From a virus (taxonomy: Duplodnaviria; Caudoviricetes), in IMG/VR virus record IMGVR_UViG_2910441116_000002, positions 1-64,000 of that record: a stretch of 64,000 nt of DNA, one strand, 5' to 3'. Made by a program: the position numbers and the translations under genes. Position 1 is the stretch's first letter. The number at the start of each line of letters is the position of its first letter. The notes under the pieces were generated by a model. That model did not search any database, had not been told where the DNA came from, and saw only the letters and a list, made by a program, of their open reading frames with translations. This document shows, piece by piece, positions 1 through 14,956 of the stretch.

Positions 1-1593
1 TTAAAAGAAATAGGTCACCAAGTTTATTAGTGGACTGAAGAAATCATTTATTTTATCTTGTTTTTCACTATCCAATTGAAGGTAAAATGAAACCCCAGCA
101 ATAACAGTTGCAAATATTGAAATCACTACAGTAGTTACGGTGAGGGAGATTGAAATTTTTCTCAATGAATTATTGGTTTTTATCTCCAACAACTTAGAAG
201 TATCGTCAATTATTTTGGCAAAGTTTAGTGAGTGGTCATATGTTTTATCAACTAATTCACTCGTATTATCAACAATAAGTTCAGTTTCAGTCTCGCCATT
301 TGAAATCCTTGGTCTTGAAGGTTCAAATTCGGTCATTTCTAAAAGTCTTTCCTTTACTCTTTCAAAGTAATTTTCTCCAATTTCATTTTTAAATCTTTTG
401 AGGAGTTGAATATCCCGCTCCAAATCAAGCCTTATTTTTATTAATTTTTTATATTTAGGGTTCTCCTTTTTAATGGAAGAAAATGTATTGCTTTGTTGAA
501 TTGAAACTTTCTTTCCTGTTTCCAAAGCATACTCTCGCATTACCATTATAGGAAGCATTTTCTTAGTAAATTCTTCTAACATATGAACTATTTGAAAATC
601 TAATGAGTAATACATATGCATTCTACTAATAAAAGAATTACACGTTACCTTTAATGTACTATCAATACTACGATCCACCCTGTTACCTGAAAACAAATTC
701 CAGCACCCATCTTTGGATATATCATACAGGAAATCATCTAATCCAACCGAATGCCAAAATCTACTCATCTTTTCTTCTTCTGTAGGCTTATATATACAAG
801 AAGGCTGATCTAATTTGTAAACTTCGATTCCCGGAGGTATCAAATTATTTTTTGTAAAGTACAAATCAAAATACTTACTGATCTTATTCATTGTTCTCCA
901 TTTCAGTTCCAACATTTGATCTTCAAGCATTTGATTCTTTACAATCTCAGACGGAATTTCTTGACCTCCCCAAAACTTAAAAGGTTTCTTCAAAAAAGAG
1001 TTGAATGTCCTTCTATCATCTATATCCCTCTCAATTAATGTCTTATGTTCGTGTAAAAATTTATCTGAAGGAGATATAACAAATTGTAATATTATTGAAG
1101 ATGAAGACAAGTGTGTTCCATGAATATGTACGCTTTTCACAAAATCAGACAGTGTGTCTTCTTCTCCAAATTCAATATAACCAAAATCACTCCATCGTCC
1201 ACCGTGAATACTTTGTTTTACTGCATTACAAAATTCATTCAATCTACCAACCTGCCCATATTGGTGACTCATTGGATACTTCTTCATTAGTTTCTTAAGC
1301 CCTTTGTTCAATTCATCTACATTTTCAATAGGAATATATTCAGCTACATATAGTGAAAGCAAATCCAACTCAACACCAATTGGGTTAGTGCTTGCCCACT
1401 TCCTCGTTCCCCACCCGTCAACAATACTTCTTGCCCAACCTAACGCCTTAGGGATATATTTGGATTTTGTATTCCCATTTTCATCAATTTCAATTTTTTC
1501 AATATAGGGCAAAATAAAGTTAGTGAATTTTATATCAAACTTTTCTTTAATACTTAATCTTTTACGAGTATGTGGGTTTTTTATATCAAGCAT
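1..1593 (-). CDS. Hypothetical 530-aa protein with C-terminal transmembrane segment (cargo, possible anti-phage effector)
   Basis: Long AT-rich ORF with own promoter; hydrophobic ISISLTVTTVVISIFATVIAGVSFYL near C-terminus after a helical region. Confidence 0.6.
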   Translation of the reverse strand: MLDIKNPHTRKRLSIKEKFDIKFTNFILPYIEKIEIDENGNTKSKYIPKALGWARSIVDGWGTRKWASTNPIGVELDLLSLYVAEYIPIENVDELNKGLKKLMKKYPMSHQYGQVGRLNEFCNAVKQSIHGGRWSDFGYIEFGEEDTLSDFVKSVHIHGTHLSSSSIILQFVISPSDKFLHEHKTLIERDIDDRRTFNSFLKKPFKFWGGQEIPSEIVKNQMLEDQMLELKWRTMNKISKYFDLYFTKNNLIPPGIEVYKLDQPSCIYKPTEEEKMSRFWHSVGLDDFLYDISKDGCWNLFSGNRVDRSIDSTLKVTCNSFISRMHMYYSLDFQIVHMLEEFTKKMLPIMVMREYALETGKKVSIQQSNTFSSIKKENPKYKKLIKIRLDLERDIQLLKRFKNEIGENYFERVKERLLEMTEFEPSRPRISNGETETELIVDNTSELVDKTYDHSLNFAKIIDDTSKLLEIKTNNSLRKISISLTVTTVVISIFATVIAGVSFYLQLDSEKQDKINDFFSPLINLVTYFF

Positions 1594-1623
1594 TCTATTC
1601 CCCCAAATTCTTCCTTTGTTGAA

Positions 1624-1652
1624 ATTGTATCTTATTACCTAGGTTCTTGCCA
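1624..1652 (-). promoter_or_regulatory. SigmaA-like promoter for the 530-aa gene
   Basis: TGGCAA-N17-TACAAT on minus strand. Confidence 0.45.
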
Positions 1653-1653
1653 C

Positions 1654-1685
1654 AAAAAAAAAAATGACTCCAAATAAATGGAGTC
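1654..1685 (-). terminator. Rho-independent terminator
   Basis: GACTCCA/TGGAGTC stem followed by long T run on minus strand, just after the 67-aa ORF. Confidence 0.7.
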
Positions 1686-1691
1686 TTGGTA

Positions 1692-1895
1692 TTAATTTAA
1701 AAACATTTTCAAATGTTTATCGAATACAAGGGTGTCTTCTACAACCTTATATTGTGACGTGAACCATTGCCCATTCACGTGAAAAACTTTGAGAATCACC
1801 TTTTTATCTGTGGCTTTCATCACAATAAAATCCCGTACTTCTTCGTGTTTCATTATATCTTGTTGCAATGCTTGTTTTACCTTTGATTTCTTCAT
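1692..1895 (-). CDS. Hypothetical protein (67 aa)
   Basis: RBS AGGAGTGGAG before ATG; followed by terminator. Confidence 0.65.
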   Translation of the reverse strand: MKKSKVKQALQQDIMKHEEVRDFIVMKATDKKVILKVFHVNGQWFTSQYKVVEDTLVFDKHLKMFLN

Positions 1896-1951
1896 GCTTC
1901 ACTCCACTCCTTTTTAAAATAAAGAGAGCCACATTGTGACTCCCCTGTTAT

Positions 1952-4591
1952 TTACCTTCCTCCCCATCGGTTTGTTCGTTTTTGCTTGGCAAGCAATTTC
2001 CTAGCAATGCGGTCAATATCTGCTTCCTCACGTACAACAAACGCTCCTTCTGCAAAGTGAAAGTTCTGCTCAACCTTGCCTTCACCCTGTTCCTTCATAG
2101 ACTCCATGTTGTCAGCAACCGCACTTGCAAATGGTTTCATATAACGCTTGTGTTGGATTGGAAGGACGGCTTCCGCTCCAGCTTCACCAACACCTTGACC
2201 ACCACCAAGAACAGACGCACCGTTGAAAATGGCTCCCTTTGCGTTCCAATTCACATTGAAGTCAGGGTAAGGAATTCCCATGATTCCCTTCTTCTTAGTT
2301 ACGCTAATACTCGGTAATTTTGGCTTAGGAATCTTGATCTTCATGAGATTAAAGGCATTTTTGATCTTGTCGATAATCCCCAACACTGTCTTTTTAGCAG
2401 ATTCAATTGGTGAGGTGATTGCTTTCTTAATACCGTTCCACACGGTTGAAGCCGTGGATTTGATACCATTGAAGATAGTCCTAATAGTTGATTTCATTGT
2501 GTTAAACGTTGTCTTGATACCATTCCACAAGGAACTTGCAACTTTTGTGACCGTGCTTTTTATTCCATTCCAAACACTTGAAGCGGTTGACTTAATGCCA
2601 TTGAAGATATTGGATACACCGGACTTCATGGAGTTGAAAATTCCTTTTGTTGTATTCCACAAGGCTTTAATGGAATTAATGACACCATTTTTCAGTTTAG
2701 AGACAATGACTTTAATCAATGCCCACATATTATCCATGAGAGAAACAACTTTGTCTTTCCCGTAACTGAAAGCAAGCCTGATTGAATCCCATTTTCCTTT
2801 AATAAGTTTTACAATTGTTTTGACAAAGTTGACTACAAGTTTTCGGATTGCTCCCACAAAACTCAAGTTCATGAGGTTCCAAACAAACTTGATTGCTCCT
2901 CCAAACAATTGTTTAATACCTTCCCACATTTTTGAAAAGTCACCTGTGAAAAGACCTGCAAATGTTTTTATGAGTCCCATGATTATATTGAGTGCCCCGT
3001 CAATTACGCCTTTGATTGAATTCCAAATATATTTAACAATAGCCAATGTTGCCTTCAAAGCAATGTTCACAATTGGAGAGATAGCGTTCCAAACATTCTT
3101 TATTGCTTGGAGGATACTTTCACCGTTCTCCTTCCAAAATTGCTTTATTTGAGCAAGTTTTTCACGTAAGAACGTGACAATTGTGTTTATTGCTTGAACA
3201 ATCAATTCTTTCGCTTGTGTGAATGTTCTGTTTACAATCTCCCTGAATGGTTCAATCTTTGCATAAGCAATTGCTAAACCTGCGACAAGTAAAGCGATAC
3301 CTGCAACAATTGCTAATACAGGAGCACTCACCATTCCAAACACTGTAACCAATGCTCCTACACCTTGAGCAATAAAACCAATGAACATTAATAATGGAGG
3401 TAACATTGCGGTTAGTCCTGCAAGAATAGTTATTGCAGTCTTTGTTGAGGGGGATAATGCGTTGAATTTGTTTGTGAGGGAAGTGATTCCGTCTGTAATC
3501 TTGCGTATGGCAGGAGTCAATACGTCTGAAATAGATATTGCAGACTCGCTCAATGCGCTTCCTAATTTCTTGAAGGCTCCATGAGCATTGTCGCTCATGA
3601 CTTTTGCCATTTCACTGGTTTGACCTTTTGATTTCTTTAACTCTCCCGTGTAATTACTCATTTTCTCTGAACCCTGATCAAGTAGTACCTGCCATCCCGA
3701 CATAGCTTCTTGACCAAACATTGTTGCAAGAGTCTGTGCCTTTTGCTTATCGGTCATGCCTTTGGTTCCCTGTTCAATACTCTTGAGAACTTCAGGCATT
3801 GATTTCATATTGCCTTGTGCGTCAAAAACACTGATACTTAACTTATCCATAAGTGACCTTGCTTCTTTACTTGGATTTGCTAACTTGGTTAGTCCACCAC
3901 GTAAGGCAGTTCCAGCTTGTGAGCCTTGAATACCAGCGTCAGACATTTTACCAATAGCTGAAGCCGTTTCCTCAATGCTCCAACCCATACCTGAAGCAAC
4001 GGGAGCAACATACTTCATTGCGTCCCCTAACTGGCTCATGTCTGTGTTTGCCGTAGCCGTTGTTTTAGCAAGCACGTCTGCCATTTTTCCTGCCTTGTTT
4101 GCTTCAATGCCAAATCCACTCATAATATTTGAAGCAATATCTGCCGTTGTAGCTAGGTCAGTGTTACTTGCAGTTGCAAGGTTCAATACACTAGGAAGAC
4201 CACTCATGATCTCCTGTGTGCTCCAACCTGCTCTCCCCAACATCTCCATACCTGTACTTGCCTCCTTTGCAGAAAACATTGTGGTTGATCCTAAATCCCT
4301 TGCAAGAGACCTCATGGAATCGAACTCTTTTCCAGTTGCTCCCGTGACCGCTGCCACATTAGACATTTGTTTGTCAAATGTCGCTCCTATGGTTACGGCA
4401 GTAACACCAATCCCCATAAGTGGAGCAGTAATTGAAGCAGTCATGGCTTTTCCTGCACTAGACATTGACTTTCCCATTTTGCCAAAGGTTTTTCCGGCAC
4501 CTTGTATGTCCTTGTCAACTTTTTTCATTCCACGGGTAAAGTCTGATATATCAGCGCCAACAGACACCATTAATTCCGATAAACTCGCCAT
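1952..4591 (-). CDS. Phage tail tape measure protein, TP901 family (879 aa from the RBS-supported ATG)
   Basis: FDKQMSNVAAVTGAT..A..LG.TT.FSA.EA core, GIQGSQAGTALR, FGQEA, hydrophobic middle, 11-residue W/F periodic repeats, C-terminal GEAGAEAVLP and VVREEADID motifs; RBS GGAAGGTG before ATG at 4591. Confidence 0.93.
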   Translation of the reverse strand: MASLSELMVSVGADISDFTRGMKKVDKDIQGAGKTFGKMGKSMSSAGKAMTASITAPLMGIGVTAVTIGATFDKQMSNVAAVTGATGKEFDSMRSLARDLGSTTMFSAKEASTGMEMLGRAGWSTQEIMSGLPSVLNLATASNTDLATTADIASNIMSGFGIEANKAGKMADVLAKTTATANTDMSQLGDAMKYVAPVASGMGWSIEETASAIGKMSDAGIQGSQAGTALRGGLTKLANPSKEARSLMDKLSISVFDAQGNMKSMPEVLKSIEQGTKGMTDKQKAQTLATMFGQEAMSGWQVLLDQGSEKMSNYTGELKKSKGQTSEMAKVMSDNAHGAFKKLGSALSESAISISDVLTPAIRKITDGITSLTNKFNALSPSTKTAITILAGLTAMLPPLLMFIGFIAQGVGALVTVFGMVSAPVLAIVAGIALLVAGLAIAYAKIEPFREIVNRTFTQAKELIVQAINTIVTFLREKLAQIKQFWKENGESILQAIKNVWNAISPIVNIALKATLAIVKYIWNSIKGVIDGALNIIMGLIKTFAGLFTGDFSKMWEGIKQLFGGAIKFVWNLMNLSFVGAIRKLVVNFVKTIVKLIKGKWDSIRLAFSYGKDKVVSLMDNMWALIKVIVSKLKNGVINSIKALWNTTKGIFNSMKSGVSNIFNGIKSTASSVWNGIKSTVTKVASSLWNGIKTTFNTMKSTIRTIFNGIKSTASTVWNGIKKAITSPIESAKKTVLGIIDKIKNAFNLMKIKIPKPKLPSISVTKKKGIMGIPYPDFNVNWNAKGAIFNGASVLGGGQGVGEAGAEAVLPIQHKRYMKPFASAVADNMESMKEQGEGKVEQNFHFAEGAFVVREEADIDRIARKLLAKQKRTNRWGGR

Positions 4592-4633
4592 TGTTTCCAC
4601 CTTCCTTTTTATTTAATACAAAAAAAAGAGTCC

Positions 4634-5119
4634 TCATAATTGAAGGACTCGTTCATAATTATCTCGACAGTATCTTAAAAACTTTTCTGTAGTTCCTTGC
4701 TTACACTTGATATATTGAGGAATCATGGAAACAAAATAACCCATTTCGTAATATTGAAATGCTCTTGAGCACACATACCGAAACAAATAGTCATCTGAAC
4801 GTATCCACTTGTTTGTTATATCTTCCTCAATTTTTTCAGCTTCCTTGAACTCTTTCTTCAGGTCTTCTGCAAGTTCTCCAACCGTCACTCCTTCTAACTC
4901 CTCATACGTCCTATACAAAATGGCTCTTTGATTCATATTGTCATTAAGATCGAATGAGTAAAGGTCATTGTTATCACGATCAATAAATTGAATGTCAATC
5001 GTGTAACTATTTTTGGGGTTATTTACGGACTTAAACAATTCAATCTCCAAGGTATGAAACGTGCAATCCAAAACAAGAAGATTTTTATTTTTAATGAGAA
5101 TCACTCTCCATGACTTCAA
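4634..5119 (-). CDS. Hypothetical protein (~155-161 aa); start uncertain
   Basis: ORF co-oriented and overlapping upstream gene; best SD (GGAGAGTG) precedes an ATT codon. Confidence 0.6.
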   Translation of the reverse strand: MKSWRVILIKNKNLLVLDCTFHTLEIELFKSVNNPKNSYTIDIQFIDRDNNDLYSFDLNDNMNQRAILYRTYEELEGVTVGELAEDLKKEFKEAEKIEEDITNKWIRSDDYLFRYVCSRAFQYYEMGYFVSMIPQYIKCKQGTTEKFLRYCRDNYERVLQL

Positions 5120-5381
5120 TCCTTACTTGTGCACTCCAAGGGTTCTTGTTACGGAATTTGAATGAGAAACACTTCTTTATTTGAACGGGTTCCCTGAACA
5201 CAAGCGTTTGCCTTGAAGCGTTCATATTACTGAAATATTGCTTGTCAATGAATAAGGTGTGACTCTGAGTCGTACAAGATTCATCCACAATTCTCATAGA
5301 TTCAGCCTTACATGGTGAATCAAGTTCAAACACGTGAATATCGTCCGAAAATGGTTCAACCGTGGTCATGAAATGTCTCAT
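5091..5381 (-). CDS. Hypothetical protein (96 aa)
   Basis: RBS AAGGAG before ATG. Confidence 0.6.
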   Translation of the reverse strand: MRHFMTTVEPFSDDIHVFELDSPCKAESMRIVDESCTTQSHTLFIDKQYFSNMNASRQTLVFREPVQIKKCFSFKFRNKNPWSAQVRIEVMESDSH

Positions 5382-5504
5382 TGGTAACTCCTTTGCATGA
5401 TTTTATCCAATAAAAAAGAGTCAACCGCTTCATTTCGGGATTGACTCGACACGATCAGTAACAACAGGCAAATTACTGGTAACATTTGAGATTCACTCCT
5501 TTAT

Positions 5505-5999
5505 TTATTCTAATGAATCAATGTCCATATCAATAATCTCTTTACGTTTTGCTTCAACGTCATAAGTTTCTTCTTGCTTAACAGTAAGTTCATGTTGTTC
5601 CTTGAACATACCCCTTGATTTTAAGATCATCTCAGCGACCTTGACTTTGTTACCCTCCGAATGAGAGGTTTTCAAAATAGAACGTAACTCCCTCACGGTA
5701 TCCTGAAACAATTCAGCAAACAATTGTTCGTTAATGTGTTCAATAAATCGTTTTGCTTCAGGTTTCTTGGTTATCTTGTAAAGTCGACTCCTCTGAAGAC
5801 CAAACTGTTCAGCGATTTCTTGGTTAGTCATCCCTGTCATGTCTTTCACAGTGTGAAGTAAACAAATCATGCGGTCTCTATGGGAGAGGTCAAATTGGGG
5901 AGAAGTGAGGTCTATATTTTCATATTGCTCAAGTTGTTCGTGGATTTCATAGAGTTCGGGTAACGTATCATCATGTTTAAATGGCTTCGTATATTGCAC
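5505..5999 (-). CDS. HTH protein, putative small terminase subunit (phBC6A51-like HTH family)
   Basis: HTH TNQEIAEQFGLQRSRLYKI; C-terminal EGNKVKVAEMILKSRGMFKEQHEL aligns by eye with EGNAAMYRTFMQSLGLLTEKHEV of the prophage protein at 40268-40645. Confidence 0.65.
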   Translation of the reverse strand: MQYTKPFKHDDTLPELYEIHEQLEQYENIDLTSPQFDLSHRDRMICLLHTVKDMTGMTNQEIAEQFGLQRSRLYKITKKPEAKRFIEHINEQLFAELFQDTVRELRSILKTSHSEGNKVKVAEMILKSRGMFKEQHELTVKQEETYDVEAKRKEIIDMDIDSLE

Positions 6000-6004
6000 T
6001 ATTC

Positions 6005-6262
6005 TTACCCTCCCACGTTGTCAGGATTACCGTGGTCATCATCCTTGCCTTCTTCTTCTGCAATCTTCCGCTTTAGGAACCCGATTCTCATTTGAAGCAT
6101 GGCACTCAAAGGCTCCCCGTCTTCTTCCATTTTAAGAAGTTGTTTGTCTTCATCATCCAGTACAGTTTTTTCTTCCTCATATTCATATTGAACAGGCTTA
6201 CCTTCGTTTTGTTTTACGTCCTCTCCATAACCTTCCGAGAGTAACTCATAAATTGATTTCAT
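6005..6262 (-). CDS. Small acidic hypothetical protein (85 aa)
   Basis: RBS GGAG; tightly packed operon with neighbours. Confidence 0.65.
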   Translation of the reverse strand: MKSIYELLSEGYGEDVKQNEGKPVQYEYEEEKTVLDDEDKQLLKMEEDGEPLSAMLQMRIGFLKRKIAEEEGKDDDHGNPDNVGG

Positions 6263-6265
6263 TGT

Positions 6266-6967
6266 TTATTTCTCCTTTCTTTTGATCTCACGGTAACGTT
6301 TTTGAGCCGTTTTTTGATCGGCTTCAATTTCACCAAATTCTTTATAAAGTAGAAAACCAAAATCTTGTTGACGTGAGAACAGTTCCATATAGTCATCCCC
6401 ACTCACAAAATAACCGGGTAAATCTTTACGTCCATATCCCGTATCAAGGAGATAGCGTCCACTCTTTTCTTTGTATTCACTGGCACCCACTGATTTGGCA
6501 TTGCCGTGTTGTAGAATGAATTCGTTGAAATCCTCCAATTGTCGGTCAACATGGCTCCGTGCTTGATAGATTTTTTGCTCAAGTTCCACAAGATAATCAA
6601 ATTTCATTTTCAAAATATCCCTCTCCTTTTTCTCCATGTATTCACGTGATTTATTCATCTGCTCACGTCTTAGTTGAACCGCTTCTTGAAGGGACTCCTG
6701 AATAAACTGTGCCTTCTCACTTTCCAGTTCATCAATCACCTCTTGCAATGATTTCACGTCACTCCACAAAGATGATTCCTCTTGGTTTATATTGCTTATT
6801 TCAGTCCTGTTTTTAGCGAAGTCTTTTCTAGTTAGATCATAGCGTTCTCGTCTTTTCTCTTGAGCCTTAGACTTTGTCATGTTTTTCTGATTGCTTAGAT
6901 CAAAAATTGTATTTTCCAAATGCTCTATTTTCTCAACTATTTCAGTCATTCTTGATTTTTGTTTCAT
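6266..6967 (-). CDS. Coiled-coil hypothetical protein (233 aa)
   Basis: RBS AAGGAG; E/K/R/Q-rich heptad pattern. Confidence 0.7.
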   Translation of the reverse strand: MKQKSRMTEIVEKIEHLENTIFDLSNQKNMTKSKAQEKRRERYDLTRKDFAKNRTEISNINQEESSLWSDVKSLQEVIDELESEKAQFIQESLQEAVQLRREQMNKSREYMEKKERDILKMKFDYLVELEQKIYQARSHVDRQLEDFNEFILQHGNAKSVGASEYKEKSGRYLLDTGYGRKDLPGYFVSGDDYMELFSRQQDFGFLLYKEFGEIEADQKTAQKRYREIKRKEK

Positions 6968-7072
6968 TTTGAATCTCCTTTTCCATAAATTCTTTTGTCA
7001 GTAATGCAACTTGACGTTTTTCTTCAGAATCGCGAGCTTGCCAATATAATTTCATTAGTGTATAAAGCATTT

Positions 7073-7318
7073 TCACAATATCCCTCTCCTTTTTGCGATC
7101 TCCAGAATGTCCTCAAGGTCTAAATATAGTCGTTCCAATGTTTCCTTCACTGTTTCATCCAGTCTTTTACTTACTGCATATTGGTGTTTACTATTCACTT
7201 CTTCAGTACGAGACACGTGAGCCACTGAAATGCCAAGTAGTTCTGCAAAGTCAGGTTGCGTAAACGATAATACAAGACGAATAGCCTTAAATTCTGCCTT
7301 GGTCAGCTTTCTTTCCAC
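7073..7318 (-). CDS. XRE-family HTH regulator
   Basis: FKAIRLVLSFTQPDFAELLGISVAHVSRTE; GTG start with AAGGAG. Confidence 0.8.
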   Translation of the reverse strand: MERKLTKAEFKAIRLVLSFTQPDFAELLGISVAHVSRTEEVNSKHQYAVSKRLDETVKETLERLYLDLEDILEIAKRRGIL

Positions 7319-7517
7319 TGTTTTTCCAACTCCTTTAAATGATGATGAATGTATGTGATTTCACCTACATTGTGGTCAAAATAAAGAAGCCCTCCATAAA
7401 GGAAGACCTCTTGCCTGTTTCTTCACTTTTGTATAAGGAGTGAAGTTCCTCTACACTTATAGGTTACTGCCTTATCTCTTTTACAACTGTCACAATATAA
7501 CCTACAAATTGTTATTC

Positions 7518-7829
7518 TTAATAAGAAAACCTATCAAGAATTCGTTTCACGGAATCAATTTCTTTGTTGGTATATGGCTTTTGGAGAACAACAAGTTCAC
7601 CATCTTTTTTCACATATACGTTACTTTCTTCAATGCCATATTCGTGCAAACTTTCACGTGTTTTCTCTGTCCACTGACTTTGAGGATATTCGTCCATAAC
7701 CTCACCAACAATGTCCTCATAAGTTCCATTGGAGACTCCGTATGAGTCAACTTCTTTTCTCCACTGTTCCATCCTCATTTCATATATTTCCATTTCGTGT
7801 TGATTGTTTGGTTTTTGGGGTTTGTTCAT
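7518..7829 (-). CDS. Hypothetical protein (103 aa)
   Basis: Abuts rep gene; RBS GGAGAAGTGG. Confidence 0.65.
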   Translation of the reverse strand: MNKPQKPNNQHEMEIYEMRMEQWRKEVDSYGVSNGTYEDIVGEVMDEYPQSQWTEKTRESLHEYGIEESNVYVKKDGELVVLQKPYTNKEIDSVKRILDRFSY

Positions 7830-8876
7830 TTAAACCACTTCTCCTTTTTTAACTTTTTTATAAAAATCTGCTTGTTCTCTGATCGTAGTATTCAAACGTT
7901 TGGCTTCTCCTTTTAACCAAGGCAAAATAGCCTCTGCTTCTTCTAAGGGAATATCAATATAATCTGCTAGTTGAAGACCATTTTTAATATCTGTGACCCT
8001 TGCCGTAATTCTATCCAGCGCTTTTTCGGTCTTCTCTGCATTTTCATTTTCTTCTTTTGAAGGTTCTTTCTGTTTATCGGAATGAGCCTTCTTTTTTTCT
8101 TGTTTTTGTTTGTATTCTTTCAAGGCAACGTCTTCGTAAAAAGCGCCACCGTTTTTGGGGTCTCTCAACAATGCTCTCTTTTCGGGTATTTTACTGCCTT
8201 TTGAGGACTCTTGAGGGGTATTGGGCTTGGGGAGTTTTTCTTGTGGTTCTGTGTGGCTCTCTGCAAGTCTCACACAATGTTGAGGGTGTTCATAATTCCA
8301 TTCTTGAATTCCAAAATATTGAGGGTTCAGATAATATTGATTATCCGCTTGTTTACCTCTTTCAACGTAACTTCCAGAATCCTTTTCCAAGGCTCCAAGT
8401 TCCTCAAGACGTTTCACAATCCTTTGTACAGTTCCATTCGTGGTTCCAGTCAATGTTCGAATTTTTGAGAAGGACAAGCGACAAGTTTTATTGTGCTTTT
8501 GGTGTCGGTAAATAAAGGAGAACATTGCAAACTCCTCCACATTCGCTTTTTCAAGAACCTCCCTTGGTAAAATGTCATAGTGTTGTGATTTATCAATGTG
8601 GAAAGTCAACTTGAAAACTCGCTTGGAAAATTCCTCAATGTCGATCAACCCTTTTTCTTGTAATGTCACCAAGGCATTATCAATATGCTTTCTATTCTTG
8701 TAAATGTCCTTCACAATGGGAACCAATTCACCAAGAACCTCAATTGAAGTCGTGTATTCCCCGTGATAATTCATGTGCTCCAGCAAATACACCAATACAT
8801 ATAATTCTGTTTCATTTAAGCGGTCAGGGTTTGAAGGTTCAACCCAATGTTGTTCAATTCGTACCGTTTTCCCCAT
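7830..8876 (-). CDS. Putative replication initiator with two winged-HTH domains
   Basis: ELYVLVYL..IDNALVTLQEKGLI and EFAMFSFI..SFSKIRTLTGTTNGTVQRIVKRLEELG..NQY resemble phage replisome-organiser wHTH; iteron region nearby. Confidence 0.65.
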   Translation of the reverse strand: MGKTVRIEQHWVEPSNPDRLNETELYVLVYLLEHMNYHGEYTTSIEVLGELVPIVKDIYKNRKHIDNALVTLQEKGLIDIEEFSKRVFKLTFHIDKSQHYDILPREVLEKANVEEFAMFSFIYRHQKHNKTCRLSFSKIRTLTGTTNGTVQRIVKRLEELGALEKDSGSYVERGKQADNQYYLNPQYFGIQEWNYEHPQHCVRLAESHTEPQEKLPKPNTPQESSKGSKIPEKRALLRDPKNGGAFYEDVALKEYKQKQEKKKAHSDKQKEPSKEENENAEKTEKALDRITARVTDIKNGLQLADYIDIPLEEAEAILPWLKGEAKRLNTTIREQADFYKKVKKGEVV

Positions 8877-8894
8877 TTCAATGAATTCTCCTTT

Positions 8895-9128
8895 TTAGAC
8901 TAGTTTTGAAAATGCTTTTTCATTTCTCTCCACAAACTTTTTAACGTCCGTCAACTCTTGAAACATGAGATTTAATTTTCTTTGTAGGTTATCCGTGAAA
9001 TCTCTTTCACCTTGCATAACCATGCTAATATAACTCATGGTGTATCCCGTTCTCCTTGCAACGTCCGTCTTTTTCAACTCAAATTCATTCATTAAAATTT
9101 GCAACTTCTCCACATTAAATTGAATCAT
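8895..9128 (-). CDS. XRE/Cro-like HTH regulator (77 aa)
   Basis: LKKTDVARRTGYTMSYISMVMQGER; RBS AAAAGGAG before ATG at 9128. Confidence 0.8.
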   Translation of the reverse strand: MIQFNVEKLQILMNEFELKKTDVARRTGYTMSYISMVMQGERDFTDNLQRKLNLMFQELTDVKKFVERNEKAFSKLV

Positions 9129-9319
9129 GTAAAAATCTCCTTTTGTGTTAGATTTAATTACACTATCTCCCCAAATAAAAAGAACACGGAAAATCCGTGC
9201 TCCAAACACATGGGGAAATGTGTACGTTTATTCCTTCTCATACTAATAGGTGGCTGGTTGAGTAGTTTAACAACCTTTCACAAAATGAGCGGTGCGGAAC
9301 CCTATAATAATCTTTATTC

Positions 9320-9822
9320 AAGATTCCACAAGTAATTATTTATTTAAGTGATTCCACAAAAGTATTTATTCAATGCTCCGCAATTCTTTGCAAGTTCTTT
9401 ATTCCAGTTATTCCACAAGGTATTTATTCAATGATCTGCGAATCTTCAATTTCTTTATTCAGTTACTTATTTATTTTTGTGGAAATTATTTTTATTAATT
9501 AAATTAAACTTTGTGGATTCTTCTGTCTAAGTATTATTTTAAGTCTAAAAATTATTAAAGAGTCTAAAACATTATTCTCTTGATAAATTCGCTCAAAAAA
9601 TTAGCCAAATTCTCACACCTATGATAAATTAGCTAAAATTTTGTCAATTTTTATCATACCTATGATAATTCAGCAAATATTTTCACCTTTTTTATCATAG
9701 TTACTTTTGCGACTCCACACCCGATTACCCAAGTTGGTCAACTCACCACACACGGTTCCCCAAAAAATACCCTGTGGTATTCAATTCACAAGGTATTTAT
9801 TCATTTGCTCATTGTGGAATAA
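9320..9822. repeat. Putative replication origin: TTCCACAA repeats, three GTCTAA repeats, three 41-bp quasi-palindromic iterons
   Basis: TTCCACAA at 9324, 9352, 9411 and inverted at 9477, 9812; GTCTAA at 9525, 9543, 9562; TGATAA units at 9581, 9622, 9663 (41-bp period); very AT-rich. Confidence 0.7.
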
Positions 9823-11128
9823 TTGAGTTGCTTTGCAACTCGCAATCTTCGATTGCCATTCTTTTGACTTTGAACTTGTTCTTTTAATGTTTTTATCTTT
9901 CTTAACAGTTTTCATATCCACTTGTGACAATTGTGTGCTTCTCAATTCCTGCAATGTAAAATCCACTTGAAATTATACTGTGTATTTTTTAGACAGGAGT
10001 TGCAGTGGTTCAGGTACCCCCGTCCCCCGTTGGTGGGGTGTCAAGTTATTTTACTTAACATTGATTAATCCTTTGTATAGCCATGAGAGTAAAATATAGC
10101 CTCACTGAATAGCTTTGTAGTGTTTCGAGTGATATACCATTCATTGAATACTTGAGTCTTATTTGAGCCATTTATGAGCGAATGAGGAAATTCAGTCTCA
10201 ATAACTTGTGATCAATTACTTCAAAGTAACACAATAGATAGAGTGTTACATTCACATGTTATAATATCAATGTTTTCATGAATGTGAATAAAACCCTTGT
10301 GTATGCACTTGAATTAAAATACAAAATAACTTCCGATAACATATCATATGTAAACTAGTGTTGGTCATGGGCAAAACCATGTAAGCCTTGGTAGAGTAAG
10401 TTGGGGTGTGGTTTTTATTCCTTGAGTCAAAATGTATGAGAATCAATTGTTTTATGCAATGGTGTAGAACCCTTGATTTATAGGGATTTGTCATTTATAC
10501 CCACGGTGAAAAGGTGTATATGTCACATTGAATATTCCTTGTTGTTATCTCCTAATAAAAGGAGTAATGGCATGGATAGTTCAAGAGTTCTCAAGAAACC
10601 TCAACGCCTTAAAACAACATTGTTCCAAATACATGGAGAAACTTGTGGAGCGGTTGAAGGTCTCACGGTTCACCGCTCTCTCCAACGTGAAGGAATCGAA
10701 CAACCATTGTGTCAATACAAAGAAGTGCAATGATCTAACCATTGAGGTTCAACGGTATATACCCATGCAGGTATGCAATGATCGTGCTTTCCCTTTGTAA
10801 AAGAATATTTTAATCAAGCCTCTCTAACATACCCCTATCGGTATTTGAGTACCTTGATTACTTTACATTGCCTACAACAACGCATATAAAGGTGTAAAAT
10901 TACACCATACTACTCATTGTTATCTCTAATGAAAATCAAGTATTGGCAATGCCTTCTCAATAAAAGTTACAAGTACACACTACCTCTCTGAACAAATCTC
11001 TAAACCTGATCAGATTAACATTATAACTTGTATTATTGTACCAATGCTGGAACAACGATTAATATAACAAACGAGCATGCTTTGTTATACCAAGGACAAG
11101 GGGGATTGGTATACTAACCAACCCCGTG

Positions 11129-11941
11129 TTATCCAATTATTCCTCCCAAGGTATTCACTATCTGATTTCCAAGGTTAAACAAATTACTTCCTGCACTCGC
11201 TAACTCGTTTACTCCTCTTACCTTGTCCATTGCGGTTCTCATGATTGATTTCTTTGGGTTCTCACTTTCAGCTTCTTGAACTGCTACTTCTAAAAACTCA
11301 ACGGTTTCCTCTTTTTCTTGATCAGGAATCTCATTGCTCTGATTTAGTTCTTCAACAAATTTTTGAACTAATTCTCCTAGTCCTTCAACCCGTGTCTCGT
11401 TATAAGTTTGTTCAGCAGTTACTTGTCCTTGACTTTCTGCGTGGTTGAGTTGTCCCCTGAATTCATTGATAGAAAAATGTGTGCCCGATTTCTTATCATA
11501 TCCCAAATCAATTTTCACCTCCGTTAAATAAGTCACAATATGGTCAACAAGCTGTTTTACAATTTGATTGTTAAAACCGTCAACATGATTTTGAACCTTA
11601 GTGGAACTCCCATAACCATATGAAACACCTAAAATGTCAAGTTCATTATCTGAGATATAATTCAGCATTTGATAAATGAAGGCAATTTCTTCGGACTCTC
11701 GAATTGGCAATTCGTATCGGACATGATGACCTTCTTTCTCAAATACTTTTTCCATGTCAAACTCTTTAACATTGTTCTCTTTAATAAATTCATTAATCGT
11801 AGGTGATTCCTCAATAAACAGAAGAAACCTTTTCAAATTTTCATGGTAATTTTGGAAGTTACAGTTCAAAAACCTACTTGCTAATTTTCTGAAACTAATT
11901 GAAAGTTTTTCATATTCCTTCTCTGTCAACACTTCGCTCAA
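11129..11941 (-). CDS. Hypothetical 270-aa cargo protein (candidate defence)
   Basis: Start abuts the stop of the upstream Zn-ribbon gene; helical N-domain, N/Q/G-rich linker, small helical C-domain. Confidence 0.7.
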   Translation of the reverse strand: MSEVLTEKEYEKLSISFRKLASRFLNCNFQNYHENLKRFLLFIEESPTINEFIKENNVKEFDMEKVFEKEGHHVRYELPIRESEEIAFIYQMLNYISDNELDILGVSYGYGSSTKVQNHVDGFNNQIVKQLVDHIVTYLTEVKIDLGYDKKSGTHFSINEFRGQLNHAESQGQVTAEQTYNETRVEGLGELVQKFVEELNQSNEIPDQEKEETVEFLEVAVQEAESENPKKSIMRTAMDKVRGVNELASAGSNLFNLGNQIVNTLGGIIG

Positions 11942-12376
11942 TTAATTCACCCCACAATATGGACAATAAATTGTATCTCTTGTTTGGTCTCCGTGTATCT
12001 TTATCGTTTTGTTACAACAATGAAGCTTAACTTGCTCCAAATTCTCATCTTCGATTAATTCCTTGGGTTGCTCCTCTTTCATCTTTTTACAATCAAAAGT
12101 AAGACCAGAACCTTTCATGCTCCGCTTTGACTTCTTGAATGTTTTATTAATTTCTTGTTTCATGTAGTTCATAGCAAGCGTTTGAGCATGTTCAATAACG
12201 GCTTCAGGTATGAAATTACTACTATCATCCGTAAGACCACAACTAGGACAGAATAGTTCTAAAGTGTCCTCTGCGTCTATATCACCGCCCAATGCCTTAA
12301 ATCTCTGCTTGCAATATGGACATTCTAATGAATAATACCCCTCACTGTCAGTCGGTATTGAGATATTTTCCTCCAC
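11942..12376 (-). CDS. Zinc-ribbon protein (CPYC, CPSC, HCC, CPYC)
   Basis: Four Cys clusters; GTG start at 12376 after GGAGGTGA; extended -10 TGATATAAT upstream. Confidence 0.75.
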   Translation of the reverse strand: MEENISIPTDSEGYYSLECPYCKQRFKALGGDIDAEDTLELFCPSCGLTDDSSNFIPEAVIEHAQTLAMNYMKQEINKTFKKSKRSMKGSGLTFDCKKMKEEQPKELIEDENLEQVKLHCCNKTIKIHGDQTRDTIYCPYCGVN

Positions 12377-12476
12377 GCTATCACCTCCATAGTAATACAC
12401 CTATTATATCACTGTGTTGTTATTTTTTGGGTATTTATAATTATTATTTGCTACAATAAGACAAAAAAAAGACTCC

Positions 12477-12575
12477 CTATTTGGAAGCCTTCAAGATTGC
12501 TTTTATTAACTTTTCCGGGTCAGGTTTTCCGTGGCTCGTAACAGTACCCACACCTTTTATATGCTTTGAACTCAT
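12477..12575 (-). CDS. Unlisted 32-aa basic peptide MSSKHIKGVGTVTSHGKPDPEKLIKAILKASK
   Basis: Strong SD AAGGAGGTG just before ATG; ends inside the terminator closing the integrase unit. Confidence 0.6.
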   Translation of the reverse strand: MSSKHIKGVGTVTSHGKPDPEKLIKAILKASK

Positions 12576-12634
12576 GTTGACCACCTCCTTCTTTTGTTTC
12601 CACACGGAATAATGATCTACCTTCCACCATGCTT

Positions 12635-13609
12635 CTACACTCTTTTTTCTAAATGCTTCAATGGTGAAAACTTCATGTGATTGTAGTTCACTTCTTCACT
12701 AAACAAGTTCACATATTTCTTTGTCATGCTCATGTCCGTATGTCCCAATAATCTTTGTAAGGTAAATGGGTCTGCTCCCCCAACTACACACAAACGAGCA
12801 AAAGTATGTCTAAAGGTGTGGCAGGAACAACGCACTCCTTTTAAATTTGCTTTTTTACCATAGTAGGTAATTCTAGATTGAAGTTGTCTCTTTGTTAAGG
12901 GAGTTTCGTCAATGGTTATAAACAAAGAATCACATTCACATACCCCTCTTATTGAAAGCCAACGTTCTAACATTTTAGCCATTGTATTTTGGAAAGGCAA
13001 GATTCTTTGATAGTAAGTTTTTGTATGCTTTACGTGGATTACGCCTTCTTTTAGCTTTATGTCATGTATTGAAAGGTTAGAGAGTTCATTGGCTCTCATA
13101 CCTGTTTCAAGCAATAAAAGCATAATCGTGTAATCCCTAATTCCAATGAACGTATGCAGGTCAGGTTGCCGAAACAAATGATTTAATTGTTCAGTTGTAA
13201 AGGTCTCCACAATTGTTTCCCTGTCCTTGAGAAGTTTTACAGATTTCATTGGATTGTTCTTTATGTAATTCTCACGGTGTAAATAATTAAAGTAAGATCG
13301 TATGGCACGTAATCTTGTGTTTATTGTGACTGTCTTTATACCTTGTTTCTTCATATAAAGTATCACATTGTTTTTTATAATGTTAGTGGTAATTTTTGAA
13401 GGAGAGGTATCAATCTCTTGTTCCCTCAAATGTTTGTAATAAACATTGAGTTCATTACGGTAATAATTAATGGTGTACGGTCTCAAGTTTCTAATGTTGC
13501 AATCATCTAAAAACAACTCAAGTGAATCCTGAAAGCTAATTTGAATAAGTGAAAAATCATTGTGGAGAGTGGCAAGTTCTTGTGGGGACAATTGCAAGTT
13601 CCTTCTCAA
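12635..13609 (-). CDS. int: Tyrosine recombinase/integrase
   Basis: N-terminal core-binding region, TGMRANEL (R), KHTK, HTFRH, LGH and catalytic Y (MTKKY); adjacent to tRNA 3' end. Confidence 0.95.
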   Translation of the reverse strand: MRRNLQLSPQELATLHNDFSLIQISFQDSLELFLDDCNIRNLRPYTINYYRNELNVYYKHLREQEIDTSPSKITTNIIKNNVILYMKKQGIKTVTINTRLRAIRSYFNYLHRENYIKNNPMKSVKLLKDRETIVETFTTEQLNHLFRQPDLHTFIGIRDYTIMLLLLETGMRANELSNLSIHDIKLKEGVIHVKHTKTYYQRILPFQNTMAKMLERWLSIRGVCECDSLFITIDETPLTKRQLQSRITYYGKKANLKGVRCSCHTFRHTFARLCVVGGADPFTLQRLLGHTDMSMTKKYVNLFSEEVNYNHMKFSPLKHLEKRV

Positions 13610-13736
13610 TGTTATTCCTCCTTAGAATTACATACGAGTTGGAACATACGATTATTTGAGGGAAAATCGTGTGAAGTAAACACAAAAAAGACTCCCTCAA
13701 CGCATTGAGGAAGCCCATTGTTTCAACACTTATTAG

Positions 13737-13818
13737 TACCGGTGGTCGGGTTCGAACCGACACTCCCGAAGGAACACGATTTTGAGTCGTGCGCGTCTGC
13801 CAATTCCGCCACACCGGC
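13737..13818 (-). tRNA. tRNA-Leu (anticodon CAA), CCA not encoded
   Basis: GCCGGTGTGGCGGAATTGGCAGACGCGCACGACTCAAAATCGTGTTCCTTCGGGAGTGTCGGTTCGAACCCGACCACCGGTA folds as a cloverleaf with long variable arm; followed by CTA. Confidence 0.97.
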
Positions 13819-13965: not shown

Positions 13966-13995
13966 AATATAGCACGCGTGATAGATTTACGTCAA
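13966..13995 (-). promoter_or_regulatory. SigmaA-like promoter reading into tRNA-Leu
   Basis: TTGACG-N18-TATATT with extended TGn motif, overlapping stop of the 267-aa gene. Confidence 0.65.
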
Positions 13996-14790: not shown

Positions 14791-14829
14791 AGTTTTCGCT
14801 CCCTTTTCGCAATTCTCGCTATTACGTAA

Positions 14830-14922
14830 ATTCGAAATTGCGTAATCTATACTACGAGTTTAAATTACGAAATTACGTAAGTCAATGAAAAACTTTACGC
14901 GATTACGAAATTTTAGTATAAT
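14830..14922. promoter_or_regulatory. Divergent sigmaA promoters with three 16-bp operators
   Basis: Plus: TTTACG-N17-TATAAT (14894-14922); minus: TTGACT-N17-TAAACT (14885-14857); TTACGAAATTACGTAA-like sites at 14830, 14865, 14895. Confidence 0.7.
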
Positions 14923-14956
14923 CTACGTAAGATAAGAATATAGGGAGGCGTTATAA

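Follow-up and report, generated by a model that had tools for sequence, protein, structure and literature searches.

An intact tape measure gene in a small integrative element beside a PK2-like prophage: a possible satellite with an accessory tail gene

Introduction

Why would a complete tail tape measure protein (TMP) gene lie among genes for integration, replication and DNA packaging? The question is raised by the left part of the window, i.e. the whole 64,000-nucleotide stretch analysed here, which the initial annotation had put forward as a candidate for a new kind of satellite, marked by a TMP without other recognisable virion genes. The limits of the region, the state and kinship of its TMP and the make-up of related elements were analysed, and the possible roles of the gene were weighed against known satellites.

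Results

Limits and neighbourhood of the element

The element measures 14,412 bp, corresponding to window positions 1-13792 plus 683 bases further left, and is bordered by a perfect 64-bp repeat from the 3' part of tRNA-Leu(CAA), whose copies lie 14,412 bp apart and number only two in the whole 4.03-Mb genome (Table 1). The tRNA-fragment repeat that the initial annotation had suggested seeking on the left therefore exists, and sizes the element. Because of these perfect att repeats and of the chromosomal genes forming its left flank, the view of a discrete, integrative element, and not a prophage stump, is supported. Its GC content is ca. 35%, vs. 43.9% genome-wide, and all its genes are on the minus strand.

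Directly right of the tRNA starts the full head, tail and lysis gene set of a 62.9-kb prophage, colinear by tblastx with Bacillus phage PK2 (recombinase, TerL, primase, PolA, RNR, dUTPase, amidase), and regarded as a candidate helper. Neighbouring head and tail genes, which according to the initial annotation would speak against an independent element if found just left of the window, do exist on the right, but the prophage is a separate element with att repeats of its own. Likewise, the claimed lack of other virion genes holds inside the repeat-bounded element, where the TMP alone gave a Pfam or PHROG match to a virion family, but not beyond the tRNA. The att repeats of the two elements overlap in the anticodon stem-loop (tRNA nt 27-41), and the two integrases share 51% identity.

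Table 1. Features of the element, its tRNA target and the adjacent prophage (window coordinates unless stated otherwise)
Feature	Position	Strand	Evidence or remark
attL copy	window -683 to -620 (L002:19317-19380)		64-bp perfect repeat
Third HTH regulator	L001:1174-1380, left of window		profile match
p530, 530 aa, accessory gene	1-1593	-	C-terminal membrane segment; homologues only
p67, 67 aa, inserted together with TMP	1692-1895	-	own SD; terminator 1685-1666
TP901-type TMP, full-length, 879 aa	1952-4591	-	PF10145 E 1e-59; phrog_1533 E 5.6e-154
p161, variable gene of the backbone, next to TMP on its upstream side	4634-5119	-	37% homologue in G446
p96, small backbone gene	5091-5381	-	overlaps p161 in +1 frame; weakly matching homologues: G331 (E 1e-4), G446 (31%)
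TerS homologue, 164 aa	5505-5999	-	PF13022 E 1e-9; phrog_2538, phrog_7344
p85 and p233 (coiled coil), conserved backbone genes	6005-6967	-	45% homologues in G331, order kept
HTH regulator, 81 aa	7073-7318	-	weak HTH matches
Rep-type replication initiator, 348 aa	7830-8876	-	HTH_36 E 2.8e-7; Rep3_N E 4.8e-4 (weak); phrog_270 'replication initiation' E 6e-9
XRE-type regulator	8895-9209	-	HTH_31/HTH_3, phrog_5736
Five iteron-like repeats, candidate origin	9313-9442	+	TTTATTY, 3-7 nt, YYYSVSAA
PDC-M14, two-gene candidate defence system	11129-12400	-	B: 11129-11941; A: 11942-12400
Tyrosine integrase	12635-13609	-	PF00589 E 7e-35; phrog_1 E 1.6e-51
attR	13729-13792		64-bp perfect repeat (tRNA-Leu nt 27-83 + 7 nt)
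tRNA-Leu(CAA), target common to element and prophage	13736-13818	-	ARAGORN, Rfam
Prophage att repeat, 41 nt, left copy	13778-13818		tRNA nt 1-41
PK2-like siphovirus-type prophage, 62,877 bp	13819-64000, continuing past window	-	candidate helper
Prophage amidase	19269-20351	-	
Prophage Tal-type protein	21231-23216	-	PF06605 Prophage_tail
Prophage Dit	25679-26500	-	
Prophage TMP	26504-29065	-	
Prophage capsid	33265-34281	-	
Prophage TerL	37197-39038	-	
Prophage TerS candidate, 125 aa	40268-40645	-	PF13022 E 1.7e-10, Pfam family of the satellite TerS
Prophage att repeat, 41 nt, right copy	window-equivalent 76655-76695		
Prophage integrase	L112:11520-12404		

Integration, replication, defence and packaging genes

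The integrase, two HTH regulators, Rep, TerS-like protein and TMP annotated initially were all confirmed in place, on the minus strand, by Pfam and PHROG matches, and a third HTH regulator lies left of the window. Rep comes with five iterons, and the TMP is intact, of the TP901 type and 879 aa long. The genes had also been described as uninterrupted; they are present, but the region 9210-11128 has no ORF above 90 aa. As for the SD sites and flanking terminators also claimed, the TMP and p67 genes each have an SD of their own, terminator-like sites are in excess (16 vs. 7.4 +/- 2.9 in shuffles), and promoter-like sites are not enriched (39 vs. 44.3 +/- 7.0).

The XRE-type regulator probably starts at an ATG near 9128, the long ORF containing a terminator-like site (9203-9181) and the G331 homologue being 74 aa long; the 81-aa HTH regulator has a 48% homologue in the same genome. 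In Rep, initially described as a double-wHTH protein, Pfam recognises one wHTH (residues 114-165). The proposed iterons were borne out, all five matches to the loose bipartite motif on both strands of the 64-kb window falling within the candidate origin, where repeat families D2, D4, D5 and D12 are also found. Both candidate defence genes have PADLOC matches (PDC-M14B, E 1.7e-94; PDC-M14A, E 9.3e-51) and are kept in G331 and G446 at 51-60%.

For the 164-aa protein, the TerS assignment is firm at the family level: 43 of its 50 remote homologues match the phrog_2538 TerS. Its AF2 model has a pLDDT of 92.7, and of the PDB folds it resembles 2AO9 most, a prophage protein of B. cereus with nine chains. 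BLASTP aligns it to the prophage PF13022 protein, positioned upstream of TerL, with 28% identity over 101 aa (E 2e-7).

The tape measure protein

The TMP is the sole PF10145 match in the genome. Its start is most likely the ATG at 4591, preceded by AGGAAGGTGG, rather than the ORF end at 4600; from this ATG the N-terminus aligns at residue 1 with the PK2 TMP, and the 879-aa form is present in a public protein collection. The identity with the PK2 TMP (OM112210.1) reaches 58% over 100% of the length, and the two proteins are colinear end to end, with a single 44-residue gap in the repeat zone. They have in common the PF10145 core, hydrophobic middle segments and a W-x-x-I-K-type repeat zone; identity rises to 64-72% in the PF10145 part and to 76-90% at residues 701-800, and the C-terminal block is nearly identical. 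Exactly one whole gene was captured, its ends matching the PK2 TMP termini with no fragments of neighbouring genes, and the 2.6-kb frame remains open in 41% GC DNA. The TMP looks functional.

Similarity between the element and PK2 is confined to this protein. The TMP of the adjacent prophage (853 aa) lacks PF10145 and is only 22% identical to it, and the second prophage of the genome (contig C3) offers no closer match. Every sampled relative is 56-62% identical to the element TMP, vs. 72-88% among the TMPs of the PK2 clade, so that no recent donor is in view. In the tree, the TMP is placed outside that clade, with a branch length of 0.45 vs. a median of 0.23, which is not extreme. Its GC3 of 0.38 lies inside the element range (0.28-0.42), while the PK2 gene has a GC content of 44.7%, which argues against a very recent arrival. 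Its source would be the tail-gene pool of PK2-like phages.

Terminators are found upstream (4650-4628) and downstream (1946-1922) of the gene. The former is strong and sits 37 nt ahead of the start, and no promoter-like site was found in between; the TMP has its own SD.

Backbone and related elements

Ten backbone genes are conserved in order in another genome, G331 (Zn152, p270, XRE, Rep, HTH81, p233, p85, TerS, p93 and p530), with TerS among the best kept (60%, G000 vs. G331); the G331 element has a serine recombinase and no TMP. The element of a further genome, G446, keeps p96, p161 and p530, with the +1-frame overlap of p96 and p161 recurring, and also has no TMP. Since both elements keep the backbone without it, TMP and p67 are, on this comparison, an inserted cassette between p161 and p530, outside the family backbone. 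The TMP being present in one of the three elements having the p96-p530 part, the idea of a satellite type defined by it fell. The reading that this is not a deleted prophage held: the relatives, too, consist of this small backbone, accompanied neither by virion genes nor by adjacent phage genes.

Homologues of p530 occur at 47-56% identity in G331, G446 and G671, in the last case alone within a small low-GC islet; no Pfam, PHROG or PADLOC family was found for it, and only unnamed bacterial clusters in the Atlas. By tblastn, p67 is absent from G331 and G446, and it has neither a Pfam or PHROG family nor an informative Atlas match. No p161 homologue was found in G331, and its model (AF2 pLDDT 63.9) gave no BFVD fold match at E <= 0.001. 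Profile searches with p85 and p233 gave only weak, coiled-coil-type matches.

Eight of the ten element sequences asked were found in a collection of ~15 billion proteins, alone or with at most two others in their 90% cluster, all on the contig that carries the element. The TerS family was found neither in 55 genomes of the same family nor in the IMG/VR and JGI metagenome scans. With the prophage TerL as query, no PK2-like TerL was found in G331, G446 or G671. In relatives, the same tRNA holds other low-GC islands with related integrases and none of the satellite genes.

Comparison with known satellites

The element resembles the PICIs of the SaPI type, whose five core components are given in PMC10085698, by its size (~14 kb), terminal integrase, regulators, replication module with origin, terS homologue related to that of the helper, and accessory or defence genes beside int and after terS; like them, it is devoid of capsid, portal, TerL and lysis genes. 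It differs by a Rep-type initiator with iterons in place of a primase-replicase, by the lack of recognised AlpA, MerR and Stl homologues and capsid-morphogenesis gene, by an att core shared with the prophage, by having all genes on one strand, and by carrying a tail gene, a class 'forbidden' in SatelliteFinder.

TMP-bearing satellites are already published, as Vibrio cholerae PLEs (PMC12987554) and as EPIPs (preprint PMC12822802), the latter being the mycobacterial case mentioned in the initial annotation; putative TMP genes are also reported in some cf-PICIs, PICI-related islands found partly in Bacillota (PMC12987554). According to PMC12987554, the PLE TMPs are distant from that of the helper (20% for PLE11, vs. 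22% between element and resident prophage here) and have a small gene nearby, as here, where the TMP lengths are also similar (879 vs. 853 aa); in PLE11, Rta is not adjacent to tmp. The same source describes a tail chaperone and a baseplate hub in PLEs, and tmp in all their variants, whereas the TMP of the present element stands alone and is missing from relatives; it also gives a contractile-tailed virulent phage as the PLE helper, vs. a siphovirus-type temperate candidate here. PLEs and the element have no sequence relation. The EPIPs of Mycolicibacterium aichiense are likewise small satellites with TerS and TMP, but are reported with head-to-tail adaptor/stopper, scaffold and capsid-related genes and a serine integrase (PMC12822802), and none of these head genes is present here. 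Genes for capsid, portal, TerL and connectors, which cf-PICIs carry themselves, are all missing from the element. In PK2, whose relatives are roughly 59 kb, the TMP gene has the tail tube/chaperone region on one side and Dit/Tal on the other; here it lies between unrelated small genes.

Discussion

The reading we prefer, with a probability of about 0.45, is that of a PICI-like integrative satellite, with an accessory TMP that was drawn from the pool of PK2-like phages and serves to build chimeric tails. Satellite behaviour of the 14.4-kb element is, taken separately, quite probable; use of the TMP in tails is tentative. Element and PK2-like prophage are arranged in tandem at tRNA-Leu(CAA), with the anticodon-loop core in common. 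Upon induction of, or infection by, a PK2-like helper, the island would excise and replicate from its iterons, and its TerS would recruit the helper large terminase, island DNA being packed into helper-made particles. The cassette (SD, TMP, terminator and the 67-aa gene), placed between p161 and p530, would provide a TMP that is most likely produced during helper growth and replaces the helper TMP in hijacked tails, as in the Vibrio PLEs. PLE TMPs are reported to enter chimeric tails and to be required for transfer (PMC12987554), and a TMP-only swap between related phages reportedly gave an infectious hybrid escaping Tab (PMC10884400). The typical places of accessory genes in PICIs are described as the stretch separating int from the regulators and the one following terS (PMC10085698), exactly the positions of PDC-M14 and the TMP at the two element ends. 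Against a use in tails, no tail chaperone or hub gene lies beside the TMP, p161 having given no fold match, and both relatives keeping its slot lack it. Also counting against the preferred reading are the doubtful expression of the TMP behind a strong terminator, the lack of a matching tail in this genome, the rarity of the element in the collections searched, and the absence of a PK2-like TerL from G331, G446 and G671 in the search with the prophage protein.

It is somewhat unlikely that the TMP is instead an inert passenger of a satellite or mobile island, acquired by recombination with a PK2-like phage, little expressed and so far undecayed. The relatives without TMP, the terminator directly upstream with no promoter-like site found, the missing chaperone or hub partner, the lack of a resident phage with a matching tail and an element known from a single genome all fit this view; the precise capture of one whole gene, its long open frame, its best conservation in the domains expected to matter, the GC3 value and the lack of a recent donor speak against it. 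A slim chance is given to an interference or defence module, in which the foreign TMP, possibly with p67, would compete, upon infection by PK2-like phages, for the phages' chaperone, tube and tip proteins, yielding dead-end tails while satellite transfer would be independent of it. The gene does occupy the hotspot after terS where PICIs hold anti-phage genes (PMC10085698), it adjoins p530 in an island also carrying PDC-M14, defences are known that act on tail assembly and TMPs, namely Rta (PMC12987554) and Tab (PMC10884400), and satellites are reported to interfere by homologues of helper structural proteins, e.g. Ccm of SaPIbov5. However, a TMP decoy is not described in the literature searched, no promoter for constitutive expression was seen, p67 has no informative relative, and the island's own transfer would suffer from a poison TMP as well if it depends on the same helper.

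That the element is no satellite, and rather an integrative Rep-plasmid-like defence island with an HTH regulator mistaken for TerS and a TMP left as phage debris, is unlikely. Such an island would account for the Rep and iterons, the lack of a recognised capsid-remodelling gene, the modest E-values of the TerS itself (1e-9), the lack of any member among IMG/VR viral contigs and the low-GC islands in the same tRNA of relatives, but it is at odds with the strong profile-level link to TerS, the fold match to the nine-chain prophage protein, the homology with the protein found in the adjacent prophage at the place of TerS and the good conservation of the gene. Finally, an arm or decayed piece of the neighbouring prophage, as the common strand, the adjacency to a complete prophage and the related integrases might suggest, is highly improbable and runs counter to the att structure, in which element and prophage are each flanked by exact repeats of their own, with the whole tRNA in between. 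Moreover, GC contents differ (35% vs. about 50%), the proteins shared are limited to the integrase, the TMP (weakly) and TerS, and the backbone is found elsewhere without adjacent phage genes.

Should the preferred reading of a satellite building chimeric tails be true, satellite particles would carry a different ejection and tail-core protein, and could evade inhibitors or exclusion systems directed at the helper TMP. The element would then represent a new, minimal form of the recently described satellite TMP strategy.

Boundaries and gene content of the island

From position 1 to 13700, every gene lies on the minus strand. Pfam and PHROGs agree with the initial annotation as to the integrase, the HTH regulators, the Rep-type initiator, the TerS-like protein (TerS, small terminase subunit) and the tape measure protein (TMP), all of which were recovered where it had placed them. 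It had also predicted a tRNA fragment left of the window, from which the element could be sized: a perfect 64-bp repeat, made of nt 27-83 of tRNA-Leu(CAA) plus 7 nt, does recur there, so that the element measures 14,412 bp. This repeat has two copies only in the whole genome (G000), in which the window occupies C45:164079-228078. To the left of attL lie chromosomal genes (transporter, methionine-pathway, queG-like and lipA-like). The part of the island outside the window, 683 bases long, contributes a further small XRE gene; the GC content of the island is ~35% vs. 43.9% for the genome.

Features of the island and of the neighbouring prophage (window positions; negative values lie left of the window)
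Feature	Position	Strand	Support or remark
64-bp repeat, left copy	-683 to -620		perfect
p530 (530 aa)	1-1593	-	membrane-anchored; unnamed family, Bacillota and Actinomycetota
TMP	1952-4600 (longest ORF); start probably ATG 4591	-	Pfam, PHROGs
TerS-like protein	5505-5999	-	Pfam, PHROGs
HTH regulators	8895-9209 and 7073-7318	-	Pfam, PHROGs
Rep-type initiator, wHTH	7830-8876	-	HTH_36, Rep3_N, phrog_270
Five iteron-like repeats	9313-9442		upstream of regulator-Rep operon
PDC-M14 gene pair	11129-12400	-	PADLOC (A: E 9e-51; B: E 1.7e-94)
Tyrosine integrase	12635-13609	-	PF00589 E 7e-35, phrog_1 E 1.6e-51
64-bp repeat, right copy	13729-13792		perfect
tRNA-Leu(CAA)	13736-13818		sole tRNA in the window
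41-nt repeat, left copy	13778-13818		exact
Prophage Tal-type protein	21231-23216		PF06605 Prophage_tail
Putative prophage TMP, 853 aa	26504-29065		upstream of Dit, weak match to satellite and PK2 TMPs; no TMP Pfam family
Putative prophage portal, 567-aa ORF	35429-37132		by position only; no portal family match
Prophage TerL, capsid protein, Dit, amidase			Pfam-confirmed
Prophage integrase	far end		Pfam-confirmed
41-nt repeat, right copy	76655-76695		exact

Concerning the signals initially described as SD sites, flanking terminators and an iteron origin, the terminators and iterons stood up: terminator-like hairpins number 16 vs. 7.4 +/- 2.9 in shuffles (~2x), and a loose bipartite iteron motif, written as a variable-gap regular expression, has 5 matches in the 64-kb window, all within the listed repeats. 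Promoter-like sites showed no enrichment over shuffles. Between the iterons and the PDC-M14 pair lies an ORF-poor stretch of ~1.6 kb (9500-11128) with a 48-nt imperfect inverted repeat (9581-9628 / 9650-9697) lacking any Rfam match; its counterpart in the related genome G331 holds a resolvase/invertase-like gene.

A HMMER scan of 1.84 billion representatives with the island TerS gave 71 matches at E <= 0.001. Forty-nine of them (118-200 aa, single matched stretch) were aligned with the island protein, long multi-stretch proteins and short fragments being left out; among these 50 sequences, 43 match phrog_2538 and 38 phrog_7344, both 'terminase small subunit'. The AF2 model of TerS has a pLDDT of 92.7 and its best PDB matches are the nine chains of 2AO9, a protein from a B. 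cereus prophage that is usually regarded as a small-terminase-like nonamer (Foldseek E 6e-3 with probability 1.00; TM-score by target length 0.64).

The gene pair next to the integrase corresponds to the PADLOC candidate system PDC-M14 and is kept in the relatives in genomes G331 and G446; a full-text literature search found no paper naming this system. Two small proteins encoded beside the TMP were considered. As a possible tail chaperone, p161 (161 aa) gave a mediocre AF2 model (pLDDT 63.9) and no fold match at E <= 0.001, and for p67 (67 aa) as an Rta-like protein the Atlas search gave nothing informative. The p96 and p161 genes overlap (4634-5381), p161 being in the +1 frame, and coupling or frameshifting is conceivable; G446 (L050:3985-4840) has the same overlap and frame offset with no TMP behind.

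The neighbouring prophage and the shared tRNA gene

Proteins of Bacillus phage PK2 (OM112210.1), used as genome queries, led to a TerL (large terminase subunit) and an amidase within the window. They belong to a prophage of ~50% GC extending from 13.8 kb to a window-equivalent of 76.7 kb (right end C45:240773, i.e. 76695) and flanked, over a span of 62,877 bp, by two exact copies of a 41-nt repeat corresponding to nt 1-41 of tRNA-Leu. The right-hand one forms a 5' half-tRNA directly behind the tRNA-Cys of a chromosomal tRNA operon. The insertion point is the anticodon loop of tRNA-Leu(CAA), with the 5' half left beside tRNA-Cys; since a 5' half-tRNA is also brought along at the distal end of the prophage, the intact tRNA has been rebuilt away from its operon. 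Satellite and prophage repeats overlap over tRNA nt 27-41, the anticodon stem-loop, and the two integrases share 51% identity. As each has its own repeat set and these overlap in one core, prophage and island are separate units inserted in tandem.

An empty-site search by flank gave no result in the relatives, as the flanking gene and the tRNA are not in synteny in other genera, and the tRNA operons were compared instead. In four relatives (G014, G038, G006 and G047), tRNA-Leu(CAA) is intact after tRNA-Cys in the same operon, with tRNA-Leu(TAA) and tRNA-Arg intervening in G038; it usually ends this conserved operon. Beyond it, all four carry low-GC islands of ~7-14 kb (loci L123 to L126, in the same genome order). 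The integrase is related in those of G014 (55%), G038 (~51%, split) and G006 (38%), the match in G047 being of 27 residues only, and none of the satellite's other genes occurs in any of these four islands. Such differing islands behind the same tRNA-Leu(CAA) indicate an integration hotspot with diverse cargo.

By tblastx, the prophage is colinear with PK2 in the small recombinase, TerL, primase, PolA, RNR, dUTPase, 3D-domain protein and amidase. It also holds a replication-relaxase and FtsK/DUF87 pair according to Pfam, such a pair being annotated in the PK2 record. The protein in its TerS position (125 aa) belongs to the same Pfam family as the island TerS (PF13022, E 1.7e-10), with 28% identity between the two (E 2e-7). 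As for the island, its sole common gene with PK2 is the TMP (tblastx), which, the prophage being PK2-like, places the origin of the island TMP in the gene pool of its neighbour's phage group. However, the TMP of the neighbour itself belongs to a different type (22% identity to the island TMP, no PF10145), as does that of a second prophage on contig C3. The adjoining prophage would be a candidate helper of the island.

Three further observations concern the prophages. A small tyrosine recombinase (38987-39601, + strand) lies on the opposite strand between the prophage TerS and TerL, an odd position that is conserved, PK2 having a recombinase in the same place (54% identical by tblastx). At the lysis-side end (13987-17422), a RepA-like HTH_36 protein, the replication-relaxase (PF13814) and the FtsK/DUF87 ATPase form a plasmid- or ICE-like module inside the phage. 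In the second prophage (G000:C3:~50000-65000; L005, L054), the capsid gene is of the HK97 type and the TMP has 874 aa.

Relatives of the island and the TMP cassette

With the island TerS as query, a relative was found in G331 (61% identity). The gene order there is the same: Zn152 (56%), p270 (51%), XRE, Rep (27%), HTH81 (48%), p233 (45%), p85 (45%), TerS (60%), a p96-like gene and p530 (48%). This backbone goes with a large serine recombinase, neither a tRNA nor a TMP being present, and its TerS, p93 (p96-like) and p534 (p530-like) genes directly adjoin one another. The p530 query led to G446 and G671. G446 has a decayed copy, with Zn152, p270 and fragments of HTH81 and TerS followed by p96-, p161- and p530-like genes, the last two being separated by ~160 bp and a terminator. 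In G671, p530 stands by itself in a small low-GC islet (L051/L052), an arrangement pointing to an accessory gene that is self-contained and possibly serves in defence.

The TMP and p67 genes are thus present in only one of the three elements sharing the p96-p530 end of the backbone (G000, the genome of the window, vs. G331 and G446), which points to an inserted cassette of ~2.9 kb. It is bordered by the p161 terminator (4650-4628) on one side and the promoter region of p530 on the other, and TMP and p67 each have their own SD and terminator. The TMP is an accessory cassette and would have joined the backbone recently, being missing from the relatives. As to the int-rep-terS-TMP synteny for which a search of Bacillaceae genomes had been suggested, the relatives found keep the backbone without the TMP, and the TMP loci found in species-representative genomes lack the other island genes.

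The initial annotation had allowed for relatives that are full prophages, and those in G331 and G446 are not, no virion gene having been found in either. Nor did any PK2 gene other than the TMP match in the island. A defective prophage was rejected on both grounds, relatives without virion genes and no PK2 gene fragments beside the TMP.

Beyond G331, G446 and G671, the island family is very rare. At the DNA level, 60 related genomes gave integrase or TMP matches only, of <=304 nt; IMG/VR scans with the p530 and TerS alignments and a JGI metagenome scan with a three-sequence TerS alignment gave none. A word-index search with TerS returned itself and one 40% relative only, TerS was found in 0 of 55 genomes of the same family, and a 400-genome sample of the class yielded the G446 fragment only.

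The tape measure protein

Starting at ATG 4591, behind AGGAAGGTGG, the TMP would have 879 aa. It carries PF10145 with 202 bits vs. a curated cut-off of 33.2, and aligns end-to-end with the 922-aa TMP of PK2 (100% coverage, 58% identity), the first residues being identical. Within the PF10145 part the two proteins agree at 64-72% of positions, and over residues 701-800 at 76-90%; the alignment has one gap, of 44 residues, in the repeat zone. The nearest relatives in a search of 5.8 billion proteins are 55-62% identical, mostly on contigs of ~59 kb, and are named 'TP901 family phage tail tape measure protein' by their sources. As TMPs of the PK2 clade are mutually 72-88% identical, the island TMP falls outside their clade; in a quick tree its terminal branch is 0.45 vs. 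a median of 0.23. Judging from these sequences, no recent donor is in view and the rate does not appear wildly raised. Among species-representative genomes, 17 TMP loci were found (best 51% identical over part of the protein), none with other island genes, and an IMG/VR scan gave 57 loci, the best at 35% near full length or 50% partial.

Comparison with known satellites

In the classical definition, the att site of a PICI is not used by prophages; the island, unlike this, shares its anticodon-loop core with the adjacent prophage. PMC10085698 names five core components of PICIs, says where their accessory genes usually lie, and treats tail genes as 'forbidden' components. The island has the integrase, with perfect att repeats, and a TerS homologue. 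Its three XRE/HTH proteins match no family named AlpA, MerR or Stl, and all lie on one strand instead of forming a divergent pair. The primase-replicase is absent, with no primase or helicase domain in the island proteins by Pfam or PHROGs, and the Rep-type initiator with its iterons is an analogue, not a homologue. Pfam and PHROGs likewise recognised no capsid morphogenesis gene, a component that, according to PMC10085698, many genuine PICIs also lack; p233, p85, p103, p96 and p161, like p67 and p530, are unassigned. Among forbidden components, the island has a full TMP and no holin was found. That source also reports PICIs in Bacillus, and cf-PICIs in <2% of Bacillaceae; the latter carry their own capsid, portal, TerL and head-tail connectors, none of which lies inside the island att repeats. 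That the element holds no further recognisable virion gene was confirmed, since no island protein other than the TMP matched a virion family in Pfam or PHROGs. On paper, the element would be a TerS-type PICI analogue with defence cargo, beside a likely helper.

Satellites with a TMP are already known. In PMC12987554, TMP and hub of Vibrio PLEs replace those of ICP1 in chimeric tails, tmp deletions lower PLE transduction by 96-99.9%, and the legend of Extended Data Fig. 10 mentions putative tmp genes in PLE-like elements and some cf-PICIs. The island resembles PLE-type satellites in having its own TMP; these also bring a tail assembly chaperone and a baseplate hub, families found in no island protein, and their tmp is conserved across the family, whereas the island TMP occurs in 1/3 related elements. 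The mycobacterial TMP-bearing satellites mentioned initially are the EPIPs of Mycolicibacterium, reported with a TMP and altered tails in the preprint PMC12822802. No Bacillaceae satellite with a TMP was found in the literature searched. With relatives devoid of the gene and satellite TMPs on record (PMC12987554, PMC12822802), the proposal that a lone TMP defines a new type of satellite is not supported; what the data do support is a variant of the TMP-encoding satellites described recently.

Possible roles of the TMP

Most likely the TMP would go into tails hijacked from a PK2-type helper, a tentative reading to which we assign a probability of about 0.35-0.4. Set beside TP901-family TMPs (PF10145), the island protein has a core above the cut-off and the full length of its phage homologues. 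An inert passenger is doubtful in its own right and nearly as likely as use in tails. The main points against use are a terminator upstream with no promoter, no accompanying chaperone, relatives in which the TMP is missing, and no tail in this genome that would match.

A decoy or interference role seems improbable. Equally hard to favour is the idea that a lone TMP alters the tail by one gene, without its own chaperone or hub, being either a weapon that ruins PK2-like tail assembly or an aid to entry into lysogens excluding the helper TMP. As a weapon, it may be a structural mimic in the satellite's defence hotspot, possibly acting together with the co-inserted 67-aa protein. Published systems directed at TMPs include the 80-aa Rta of PLE11, which blocks the helper TMP (PMC12987554), and the Tab defence, aimed at the TMP C-terminus, where exchange of the TMP alone gave infectious escape phage (PMC10884400).

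Returning to use in hijacked tails, functional satellite TMPs have been shown recently, and only in Vibrio PLEs, which add chaperone and hub; the present case would be a Gram-positive PICI-style island with a TMP alone, standing in tandem with a candidate helper at the tRNA core that both occupy. Without use of the TMP, the island is an ordinary rare one that has captured a phage gene. Use of the TMP would mean that a single gene suffices to give a hijacked siphovirus tail a new core, that satellites can acquire tail genes as accessory cassettes, and that such elements escape tools in which a tail gene counts as proof of 'not a satellite' (the forbidden components of SatelliteFinder).
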